Assembly (NCBI RefSeq): GCF_054482595.1
Contig: NZ_CM137008.1
Length of the DNA stretch: 64,000 bases
Reading direction: 5' to 3' (one strand)
The position numbers are program-made. How positions within the stretch are numbered: position 1 is the first letter of the stretch; every line of letters starts with the position of its first letter. Below, piece by piece: positions 50,329-53,300 of the stretch.

Positions 50329-53300
50329 GTTAGAGTCTTTCAGTCTGCGATGATGGGAAATCCCGGAGTGACTGAAAGACGTTTAAGTTATGAATGATCG
50401 CCTTTTTTTGCAAAATTGCTGTGCAGAAATACTAACCTTCGAGCAGGCGATCATTCATAAGCACTCTGCTTTTATTCCGATTAACTGTGGGTGGTTTGTT
50501 GGATAGAGTGCTTTCCTTTCTGTATATATCGTTTCGCCCGCTTTTGCGGGTTTTTCTTTTCAAATCCCTTTCATTTCTCAGTGTAAAACTACGCCATCCG
50601 TTATTTGCGGAGGTGAGGCTATGAAATCCATGGACAAAATTTCAACGGGCATTGCCTACGGCACCTCCGCAGGCAGTGCTGGCTACTGGTTTTTACAGTG
50701 GCTTGATCAGGTCAGTCCTTCACAGTGGGCTGCGATTGGTGTACTGGGGAGTCTGGTTCTGGGCTTCCTGACTTATCTGACAAATCTGTACTTCAAAATC
50801 AGAGAAGACAAGCGTAAGGCTGCACGGGGAGAGTAATTCAATGACTCAAAACTATGAACTGATTGTGAAAGGGATCCGCAATTTTGAGAATAAAGTTACG
50901 GTAACTTTAGCGTTACGGGACAAAAAACGCTTTGACGGCGAAATTTTTGACCTGGACATCTCGCTGGACCGTGTTGAAGGTGCCGCGCTGGAGTTTTATG
51001 AGGCAGCAGCCAGAAGGAGCATCAGACAGGTCTTCCTGGATGTTGCTGCCGGGTTATGTGAAGGGGATGAGCAGTCGCCGGAAAAGCGCCCCGTAATTTT
51101 AGAGGCGCAGAATGTGTGGATAACCTACAAAGGAAAGCTACCAGGAAGAATTACTGGTTCTCTGAAGACTCCTCCGGAATCACAACCTTAAGTCACTGAC
51201 CGGAACAGATAAACCTGTCCGTGGGCAGAAACCGATAAATCCTGATAAATATCCATGAACGCAAAAATCAGATACGGCCTGTCGGCTGCCGTTTTGGCAC
51301 TGATTGCCGTCGGTGCGCCCGCGCCTGATATTCTCGACCAGTTTCTGGATGAAAAAGAAGGTAACCACACAACGGCATACCGCGATGGTTCCGGCATCTG
51401 GACCATCTGTCGGGGTGCCACGATGGTGGATGGAAAACCCGTTTTTCCCGGTATGAAACTGTCGAAGGAAAAATGCGACCAGGTCAACGCCATTGAGCGT
51501 GATAAGGCGCTGGCATGGGTGGAGCGCAATATTAAAGTACCACTGACCGAACCACAAAAAGCGGGTATCGCGTCATTTTGTCCCTATAACATTGGCCCCG
51601 GTAAGTGTTTTCCGTCGACGTTTTATAAGCGGCTGAATGCCGGTGATCGTAAGGGCGCATGCGAGGCGATTCGCTGGTGGATAAAAGATGGTGGGCGCGA
51701 TTGCCGCATACGTTCAAATAACTGCTATGGACAGGTTATTCGTCGTGACCAGGAAAGCGCATTAGCCTGTTGGGGGATAGATCAGTGAGCAGAGTCGCCG
51801 CGATTATTTATGCTCTGGTTATCTGCATCATCGTCTGCCTGTCGTGGGCGGTCAATCATTACCGTGATAACGCCATCGCCTACAAAGAACAGCGTGATAA
51901 AAAAGTCAGTGAGCTGAAGCTGGCGATCGCCACCATCGCTGACATGCAGCAGCGTCAGCGTGATGTTGCTGCGCTCGATGCAAAGTACTCGAGAGAATTA
52001 GCCAATGCGCAAGCTGAAAATGAAACTCTGCGCGCTGATGTTGCCGCTGGCCGTAAGCGCCTGCGGGTCAATGCCAGTTGCTCCGCAGCCGTGCGTGAAG
52101 CCACCGGACCCACCAGCGTGGATAATGCAACCATCCCCCGACTGGCAGACACCGCTGAACGGGATTATTTCACCCTCAGAGACCGATTGATGACGATGCA
52201 GATGCAACTGGAAGGGGCGCAGGAATATATCCGCACTCAGTGCATTAAGTAGCCTTTTTATCGTGGTAAACATTTCGCAGGGTATGAGGTATTTATGCCA
52301 TCACGAATCCCACGCGCCTGCCGTAAGCGTGGATGTGCAGGTACAACCACAGACAGTTCTGGTTACTGCGATAAACATCGTGGCGAAGGATGGGTACAGC
52401 ATCAACGCGGACTGAGCCGCCACCAGCGTGGCTATGGCTCGAAATGGGATGCCATACGTGCGCGCATACTGAAGCGTGATAATCATCTGTGTCAGAACTG
52501 CCTGCGCAATGGGAGAGCCGTTGAAGCCAGAACTGTGGACCACATCATTCCGAAAGCTCATGGTGGCACGGATGCAGACAGTAACCTGCAGAGTCTGTGC
52601 TGGCCCTGTCATAAAGCAAAAACAGCGCGCGAACGCATCAATTGATAACAGTTCCCATCTGTAGGGGAGGGGCGGGTCAAATCTCTGCAACCCTGGCTGC
52701 TCAGTACCGCCGCCTGACCCTTCCTCACATCGCCGCAGGTTCGAAAACTTTTTTTTGGAAATGTGAACAAACGATTGATAGGTAAGACCGATTATGTCAG
52801 GACCTCCGAAAACCCCGCCACGCCTGCATTTGATTCGAGGCAACCCCTCAAAGCGCCCCGTTAAAGACCACAAAAAAACCGCTAAAAAGGATGAAAAAGG
52901 TCTTCCTAAAATTCCGCAGCATTTAGGGGCTCAGGGGAAGTACTGGTTCAGGCGAATGGCGGAAGAGCTGAATGCGGAAGGGATCATTTCTCAGCTTGAT
53001 GCGCGTGCGCTCGAGTTGCTGGTGGAAGCCTACACCGAATATCGGCATCACTGCGAAACACTCGATGTTGAGGGGTATACCTACCGCACGGAAACGCAGA
53101 GCGGTGATGTACTGATTAAGGCGCACCCCGCGGCGGCAATGAAAGCGGATGCCTGGAAGCGGATCCGGGCAATGCTTGCAGAGTTTGGTATGTCACCGGC
53201 AAGCCGGGCTAAAGTAAATATCGCCGGACCGGATGATGTTGATCCGCTGGCGGAGCTTTTAAAAGCGAGAGACTGATGGCAAAAGTGGCTGACGGGATCC

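Follow-up and report, generated by a model that had tools for sequence, protein, structure and literature searches.

Why a small HNH nuclease gene lies directly in front of terminase genes is the question raised by a lambdoid prophage in a 64,000-nucleotide (nt) stretch of contig NZ_CM137008.1 (RefSeq assembly GCF_054482595.1), the whole of which is called the window here. A preliminary description of this stretch had named an HNH endonuclease gene immediately upstream of the terminase genes and had read its position as a sign of packaging from a cohesive-end site (cos). We compared the gene, its product and the DNA around it with phages whose genome ends or HNH proteins have been characterized. 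The evidence makes us fairly confident that the protein is a packaging-associated nuclease that would act with terminase at the cos of a lambdoid prophage with an HK97-like head.

The gene was found exactly where it had been placed, at positions 52295 to 52645 on the plus strand, as an intact open reading frame (ORF) of 116 amino acids (aa) that begins with the first ATG after a stop codon (52295) and ends with TGA (52643 to 52645). A Shine-Dalgarno-like GAGG, read from the sequence, stands at 52286 to 52289 on the same strand, 5 nt before the ATG. The Pfam HNH profile (PF01844), which the preliminary description had proposed as a check, matched over its full length (positions 1 to 47 of 47) with 60.4 bits against a gathering cut-off of 21.4 (E 1.9e-16). 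HNH_5 was matched as well, the top PHROG was phrog_144, "HNH endonuclease" (E 1.2e-41), and the best solved-structure match was GVE2 HNHE (PDB 5h0m; E 2.4e-15, residues 1 to 114). In an alignment of six phage HNH proteins (the prophage HNH, phiP27 L34, SfV orf53, mEp235 HNH, HK97 gp74 and GVE2 HNHE), residues C66, C69, D82, H83, N97, C102 and H106 were invariant. The catalytic residues H83, N97 and H106 align with H93, N109 and H118 of GVE2 HNHE, and the [CxxC]2 zinc site (C66-x2-C69 plus C102-x2-C105) aligns with C76, C79, C114 and C117; the roles of these GVE2 residues as catalytic residues or zinc ligands are taken from the structure paper (PMC5304195). C105 completes the zinc site, at a position where HK97 gp74 has a histidine. 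The prophage protein is thus an HNH nuclease in which no catalytic residue or zinc ligand is missing.

The first 40 residues carry in addition a zinc ribbon, C9-x4-C14 (C9-RKRG-C14) and C25-x2-H28 (C25-DK-H28), whose motifs align with the same motifs in GVE2 HNHE. Zinc ribbon motifs (CxxxxC, CxxH and similar) have been defined for HNH endonucleases encoded beside cos and terminase genes (PMC3592412). HK97 gp74 (NP_037756) shares the conserved HNH core, with 37% identity over 70 aa (BLASTP E 6e-12), but it lacks this 40-aa N-terminal ribbon, its C terminus is extended, an insertion separates its H and N motifs, and it carries CxxC plus CxxH where the prophage protein has [CxxC]2 (see also PMC3592412). 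Because gp74 has no zinc ribbon and only this degree of identity, the prophage protein belongs to a different subtype: it is homologous to gp74 yet of the zinc-ribbon subtype of GVE2 and phage Gamma. With GVE2 HNHE and N.phiGamma, the enzyme of phage Gamma, it has in common the CxxxxC ... CxxH ribbon, the [CxxC]2 and H-N-H residues and the gene position, although identity is only ~33 to 40% and the hosts of those phages are Gram positive. Much closer is phiP27 L34 (NP_543086), which has the same length of 116 aa, is 90.5 to 91% identical and likewise precedes a cos and a P27-family small terminase (TerS).

The genes that follow are those of an HK97-like head. The placement "immediately upstream of the terminase genes" holds: after a spacer of 148 nt come TerS (52794 to 53276, +), of the P27 family (Terminase_4, E 2.3e-25; TIGR01558, E 4.7e-32; phrog_83), and the large terminase (TerL; 53276 to 55033, +), with an ATPase domain (TerL_ATPase, PF03354, E 1.9e-27) and a nuclease domain (TerL_nuclease, PF20441, E 4e-52) and 29% identity to HK97 gp2 over 455 aa (E 7e-41). 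Farther downstream on the same strand lie genes for the portal protein (55227 to 56468; Phage_portal, PF04860, E 5e-108), the S78 prohead serine protease of the HK97 family (56410 to 57096; PF04586, E 1.2e-31), whose homologue is named "HK97 family phage prohead protease" by the Prokaryotic Genome Annotation Pipeline (PGAP), and the major capsid protein of the HK97-fold family (57111 to 58316; PF05065, E 2.3e-79). The order is therefore HNH, cos, TerS (P27), TerL (PF03354), portal, S78 protease, capsid. HK97 has the same plan: gp74 is the final gene ahead of cos, beyond which come TerS, a TerL with PF03354 and PF20441, portal, protease and capsid, but its TerS, gp1, has no Pfam match and no BLASTP similarity to the prophage TerS. 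Packaging HNH proteins are reported by Kala et al. 2014 to go together with a Terminase_1 (PF03354) TerL and with a portal, protease and capsid of HK97 type; the prophage encodes PF03354, PF20441, PF04860, PF04586 and PF05065 proteins beside its HNH gene. Adjacency of an HNH gene to a terminase with these matching families is far beyond chance.

The preliminary description had also called for a cos site nearby, and we found one in the spacer between the HNH and TerS genes. We aligned the spacers of the window, phiP27, SfV, mEp235 and HK97 (each record being joined end to end) with MAFFT. The alignment with the cos regions of HK97, phiP27, SfV/SfI and mEp235 was free of gaps through a core made of a G-rich box plus TCAAA, a 24-nt spacer and (G/T)AC, after which the overhang begins. 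Three independently defined ends, those of HK97, SfI and phiP27, fall on the same alignment columns, which correspond to 52708 to 52717 of the window. The HK97 record ends with GAC followed by CGCCGCCAAA, these last 10 nt lying on columns 52708 to 52717, and its ends are reported as 10-nt 3' overhangs (PMC9410871, legend to Figure 1; PMC11331095), although PMC9410871 is inconsistent in giving 10 nt in the legend and 12 nt in the discussion. The SfI record ends with GAC followed by TGCCCGCCCC, and run-off sequencing of virion DNA gave a 10-nt cos, 5'-TGCCCGCCCC-3' (PMC3636060). In the phiP27 record, a 10-nt cos site, CGCCCGCCCC, is annotated 61 nt past the HNH stop codon; the left cos arm of this phage is 82% identical to that of the window. 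By homology, the cohesive end of the prophage is predicted to be the 10-nt CGCCGCCTGA (52708 to 52717), differing from that of phiP27, with the top-strand cut after 52717. The records of GVE2 (which starts inside the HNH gene), SfII, ST64B and mEp235 are not cos anchored and were not used to place ends, nor were those of SfV and SfIV, which end 17 nt upstream of the SfI/HK97 end. Global nucleotide identities of 2 to 10% arise where the sequences do not align and were used qualitatively only. The homology of the spacer to mapped ends, together with the HK97-like head module, supports the reading of cos-type packaging, and the prophage is probably a cos packager whose 10-nt cohesive end has a 3' extension.

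Two conserved elements flank the predicted cut. Upstream, the G-rich box plus TCAAA (GGGGAGGGGCGGGTCAAA, 52664 to 52681) lies 24 nt before ACCGCC and keeps this distance in phiP27, SfV/SfI, mEp235, HK97, Bacillus phage Gamma and Paenibacillus phage Wanderer. We regard it as a candidate cos subsite on the upstream side, placed much like cosQ of lambda; the literature examined assigns it no function. Downstream, a conserved block (CACATCGCCGCAGGTTCGAAAACTTTTTTTTGG, 52726 to 52758) spans +9 to +41 from the top-strand cut and consists of CACATCGCCGCAGGTTCGAAAAC followed by a T tract. This block is kept in phages with the same type of TerS (mEp235 and many IMG/VR loci), and other blocks stand in its place where TerS differs. 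Because its conservation follows the TerS type, we consider it, by analogy, a candidate TerS-binding site, comparable to cosB. HK97 TerS binds +15 to +29 downstream of the cut, beside an A/T tract (PMC11331095). No inverted repeats or meaningful direct repeats were found in the HNH-TerS spacer.

We then asked how closely HNH genes of this kind are tied to cos. The same order, with the HNH gene as the last gene of a cos-anchored linear record, is seen in phage Gamma, phi105, SfV, SfI and HK97, and several linear phage records end just past an HNH homologue. A tblastn search with GVE2 HNHE returned 1695 phage records with a homologue; in a spread sample of 40 of these, ~24 had the gene at most 1 kb from a record end, which is the signature of a gene beside cos. 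A scan of IMG/VR for the cos motif gave at least 133 instances. Among the matches listed, an HNH homologue lay at most 700 nt upstream in 118 of the 133 and a TerS homologue lay downstream in 103. Most apparent exceptions among the listed instances were cut contigs or had a very divergent TerS, and the apparent HNH absences that we examined were explained by an HNH gene further upstream, by cut contigs or by different elements. Positions fixed by the search pattern are conserved by construction; our statements on conservation rest on alignments chosen by context instead of on the motif scan.

These data bear on the possibility that the gene is a free-standing homing endonuclease gene, that is, a selfish mobile gene with no part in packaging that propagates itself by cleaving alleles devoid of HNH. 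Several GenBank records, among them ON470580, do label the homologue "homing endonuclease," HNH is a common fold of such enzymes, and the gene is located at a mosaic joint. However, its position beside cos and TerS is fixed across phyla, in E. coli, Shigella, Bacillus and Paenibacillus phages and, more broadly, in ~1700 phage records. A homing gene should be present in some alleles and absent from others, whereas no such polymorphism was seen in the loci examined and the gene accompanied the cos motif in the 118 instances mentioned above. There is also no intron or intein context, and the protein is small and has no DNA-binding module besides the zinc ribbon. Finally, the genetics implicating gp74 and a staphylococcal HNH protein in cos cleavage and packaging (cited in PMC9410871 and PMC12967558) counts against homing, and we regard this explanation as extremely improbable.

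Some loci depart from the common arrangement. Four IMG/VR loci (L124, L151, L187 and L097) carry the cos-core motif with no HNH homologue within 1.5 kb upstream, and in L124 and L187 a right arm of the window type adjoins unrelated small ORFs. Such HNH-less loci possibly represent satellites that have a cos and make use of this packaging system. In loci L137 and L098 and in phage PhiR49_2, an inserted 133-aa ORF separates the HNH gene from cos; the HNH gene of PhiR49_2 (92% identical) is present but unannotated. In Escherichia phage Evi (LR597642), the HNH gene is cut off after residue 91 and the whole cos core is gone, 112 unrelated nt standing in place of 182 nt; either the deletion is genuine or the assembly went wrong where the virion DNA ends.

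The gene also follows the lysis cassette (50621 to 52252), which comprises a P21-type holin, DUF1327, lysozyme and Rz with embedded Rz1. Placement after the lysis genes led to speculation, for SfIV, about a role in the timing of lysis (PMC3851460). Relief of supercoiling, stimulation of recombination and restriction of competing DNA were put forward, also as speculation, by Xu and Gupta (PMC3592412), and the protein has weak NCBIfam similarity to the HNH domains of ZorE and IscB. The latter matches score 23 to 49 bits against cut-offs of 130 to 600 and are generic matches to the HNH domain. As for lysis, different cassettes and inserted genes precede the HNH gene in phiP27, HK97, mEp235 and close E. 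coli relatives, and homology to many relatives begins exactly at the HNH start codon, showing that the gene travels with cos and not with the lysis genes. Since later biochemistry links gp74 to cos cleavage (PMC9410871; PMC11331095), we judge it very improbable that the nuclease serves any of these other ends. No promoter or terminator consensus was found between Rz and TerS, which fits a single late transcript.

We therefore return to packaging. The preliminary description had stated that HNH proteins in this position cooperate with terminase in cos cleavage in HK97-like phages, and this agrees with what has been published for gp74: in a reconstituted system it stimulates HK97 terminase to cut at cos (PMC9410871), and TerL has been proposed to cut one strand and gp74 the other (PMC11331095). 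PMC12967558 credits Kala et al. 2014 and Quiles-Puchalt et al. 2014 with the idea of two nickases. The staphylococcal phi12/phiSLT HNH proteins and the lactococcal Skunavirus HrdP are likewise encoded beside the terminase genes of cos phages and, according to reports or proposals, join TerS and TerL in cleaving cos (PMC12967558). Their sequences are distant from that of the prophage protein, and the Skunavirus HNH gene lies ~2.4 kb from the record start and not at the right end. The gp74 and staphylococcal HNH proteins are reportedly strictly essential (Kala et al. 2014; Quiles-Puchalt et al. 2014). By homology and synteny, the HNH protein of this prophage most likely has a role in cos cleavage as well. 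Its gene closes the part of the late operon that precedes cos. During lytic growth, concatemeric DNA would be cut at cos in the spacer between the HNH and TerS genes. The P27-family TerS would bind downstream of the cut, TerL would provide one nuclease active site and the HNH protein the second, and two staggered nicks would yield the predicted 10-nt 3' cohesive end. Which strand each nuclease would cut is an inference.

Lambda cos, with cosQ, cosN and cosB, offers a parallel in its site-specific staggered nicks, with a TerS subsite downstream of the cut and another subsite upstream. It differs in that gpA alone makes 5' overhangs with no HNH partner, and its sequence has no similarity to the prophage cos.

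Four points weigh against this role. Transfer of function from gp74 crosses subfamilies, given the identity of only 37% over 70 aa and the absence of a zinc ribbon from gp74. In phiP27, the same type of HNH protein (90.5% identical) has as its partner a TerL that shares only 39.5% identity with that of the prophage, so that a specific HNH-TerL contact must tolerate large divergence or be indirect. The Skunavirus HNH protein was not seen to coelute with TerL (PMC12967558). Lastly, the length and polarity of the prophage overhang are predictions drawn from homologous phages.

The divergence of the partner terminases is part of a wider mosaic pattern. Compared with phiP27, amino acid identity is 90.5% for HNH, 21.8% for TerS and 39.5% for TerL; compared with mEp235, it is 73%, 75.8% and 86.5%, respectively. 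DNA homology to phiP27 ends at 52711, inside the predicted overhang. The left cos arm and the HNH gene are thus phiP27-like, and the right arm, TerS and TerL are mEp235-like. Consequently, cos (~52700 to 52720) is a joint between a module made of HNH plus left arm and a module made of right arm plus terminase, probably one where such modules are exchanged by recombination, which implies that this type of HNH protein functions, or is at any rate maintained, alongside widely differing terminases. The cos core itself is conserved over much larger distances. Bacillus phage Gamma and Paenibacillus phage Wanderer share with the E. coli phages the G-rich box plus TC(G/A)AA, the exact 24-nt spacing and the AC/CG edge of the overhang (the slash marks the boundary), and in phages phi105 and Fern a C-rich box, about equally distant, stands in place of the G-rich one. 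The core, consisting of the G-rich box plus TC[A/G]AA, 24 nt and AC/CGCCGCC, is therefore shared, in conserved form, by E. coli prophages and phages of Bacillus and Paenibacillus, and the HK97 core is homologous to it (G-rich box, 24 nt, GAC/CGCCGCC).

The edge of the overhang suggests which cut the HNH protein might make. Strand-specific nick sites were measured in vitro for N.phiGamma and GVE2 HNHE as CG^GT, which reads AC^CG on the other strand, and for the phi105 HNH protein as RAC^CR (PMC3592412); AC^CG nicking has been measured only for the two former enzymes. In a 3' overhang, the bottom-strand cut forms the left edge. In the window, the sequence ACCG (52706 to 52709) places the predicted bottom-strand nick between 52707 and 52708, AC^CG on the top strand and CG^GT on the bottom strand. 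The AC directly before the overhang was invariant in all eight aligned phages, and CG came next in seven of them. HK97, phiP27 and, by prediction, the window have AC/CG, whereas SfI has AC/TG. The left edge reads AAC/CGACGGCCC in Wanderer, AAC/CGACTGCCC in Paenibacillus phage Fern and GTAC/CGCCGCCCC in phage Gamma, where the 9-mer is repeated at both record ends. In phi105, the edge GAGACC/GCGCTCC is 1 nt from ACCG.

The AC/CG edge thus equals the measured nick site of related HNH nickases, suggesting that the HNH protein makes the bottom-strand cut. The strongest case is phage Gamma, since specificity was determined for this phage's own enzyme. On these grounds the HNH protein may be a sequence-specific bottom-strand nickase of cos, more than a "stimulator" of terminase, a view that we hold tentatively and rate a little short of even. 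The E. coli phages count as one observation because of their shared ancestry, and the Paenibacillus and Gamma records, a small sample, were checked after the idea had been formed. The overhang of the Gamma group is 9 nt long, in contrast to the 10 nt of the prophage, and the polarity of CGCCGCCCC is disputed, being given as 3' extended in a review (PMC4113786) and as 5' by PhageTerm (PMC8878798). No AC/CG was found at the right ends of the records of Geobacillus PK5.1, Staphylococcus R4, Streptococcus CHPC1033 and Enterococcus EF-M80, which are possibly not physical ends and were counted neither way. We found no statement of the coincidence between nick site and cos edge in the literature searched, a search that did not extend to Kala et al. 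2014. This match and the module joint at cos may be new results.

Is the prophage still able to use this system? The gene could be intact but idle if the prophage is cryptic or defective and has ceased to package DNA. The integrase gene is frameshifted in the closest complete-genome relative, the early region contains genes like those of the cryptic prophages Qin and Rac (dicB, ydfC, hokD/sok and DicF), and the window ends before the tail genes finish. Yet the integrase ORF is open in the window (341 aa), the HNH, TerS, TerL, portal, protease and capsid proteins are all full length with strong family scores, and close relatives have been deposited under phage names. We consider an idle prophage improbable; even if true, it would alter the present-day activity of the gene and not its identity.

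The surroundings of the module can be described as follows. A chromosomal region of E. coli CUVET21-1780 is 99.4% identical; it holds a lambdoid prophage that adjoins tRNA-Ser and mtfA and has a lambda-like tail, and there PGAP names "HNH endonuclease" and then "phage terminase small subunit P27 family." The element in the window, too, is a lambdoid prophage that neighbours tRNA-Ser, and its head and packaging module is HK97-like. Its integrase gene (36250 to 37275, minus strand) lies ~50 nt from tRNA-Ser, the likely attachment site, and the host flank (15648 to 35116 and 36108 to 36197) holds four tRNA-Asn genes and tRNA-Ser(CGA). The early region encodes the DicF small RNA (40623 to 40674, minus strand; Rfam, 77 bits) and the sok antitoxin RNA (46264 to 46439, plus strand; Rfam, 112 bits), which hokD adjoins in the relative. 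Four phage-borne tRNA genes (50019 to 50328) lie between the Q antiterminator and holin genes, one with a CAT anticodon (Met by ARAGORN, Ile in PGAP) and the others for Lys, Thr and Gly. They are followed by a terminator-like hairpin (50536 to 50551), possibly a Q-antiterminated tR'. Between the TerL and portal genes, a 60-aa predicted membrane protein (55045 to 55227, +; phrog_502, moron category) has a counterpart at the same place in phiP27, L37.

The HNH gene is already known and routinely annotated, and as such it is of low interest: a 701-nt stretch covering the gene, cos and the start of the terminase genes matches 1770 of 5426 complete E. coli genomes and PGAP names the gene, so the feature is common. 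The annotation of the element as a cos-packaging lambdoid prophage with an HK97-like head is settled. With packaging from cos rather than by the headful, generalised transduction should be rare, and satellite elements that carry cos might exploit the system. The predicted cohesive end is a useful concrete addition, since it makes the genome ends predictable to the base and aids prediction of the virion genome structure. The nick-site match and the conservation of the cos core offer modest leads that can be tested and that bear on which nuclease cuts which strand in HK97-type packaging: if the match holds true, the HNH protein would nick the bottom strand at AC^CG and TerL would cut the top strand 9 to 10 nt downstream.

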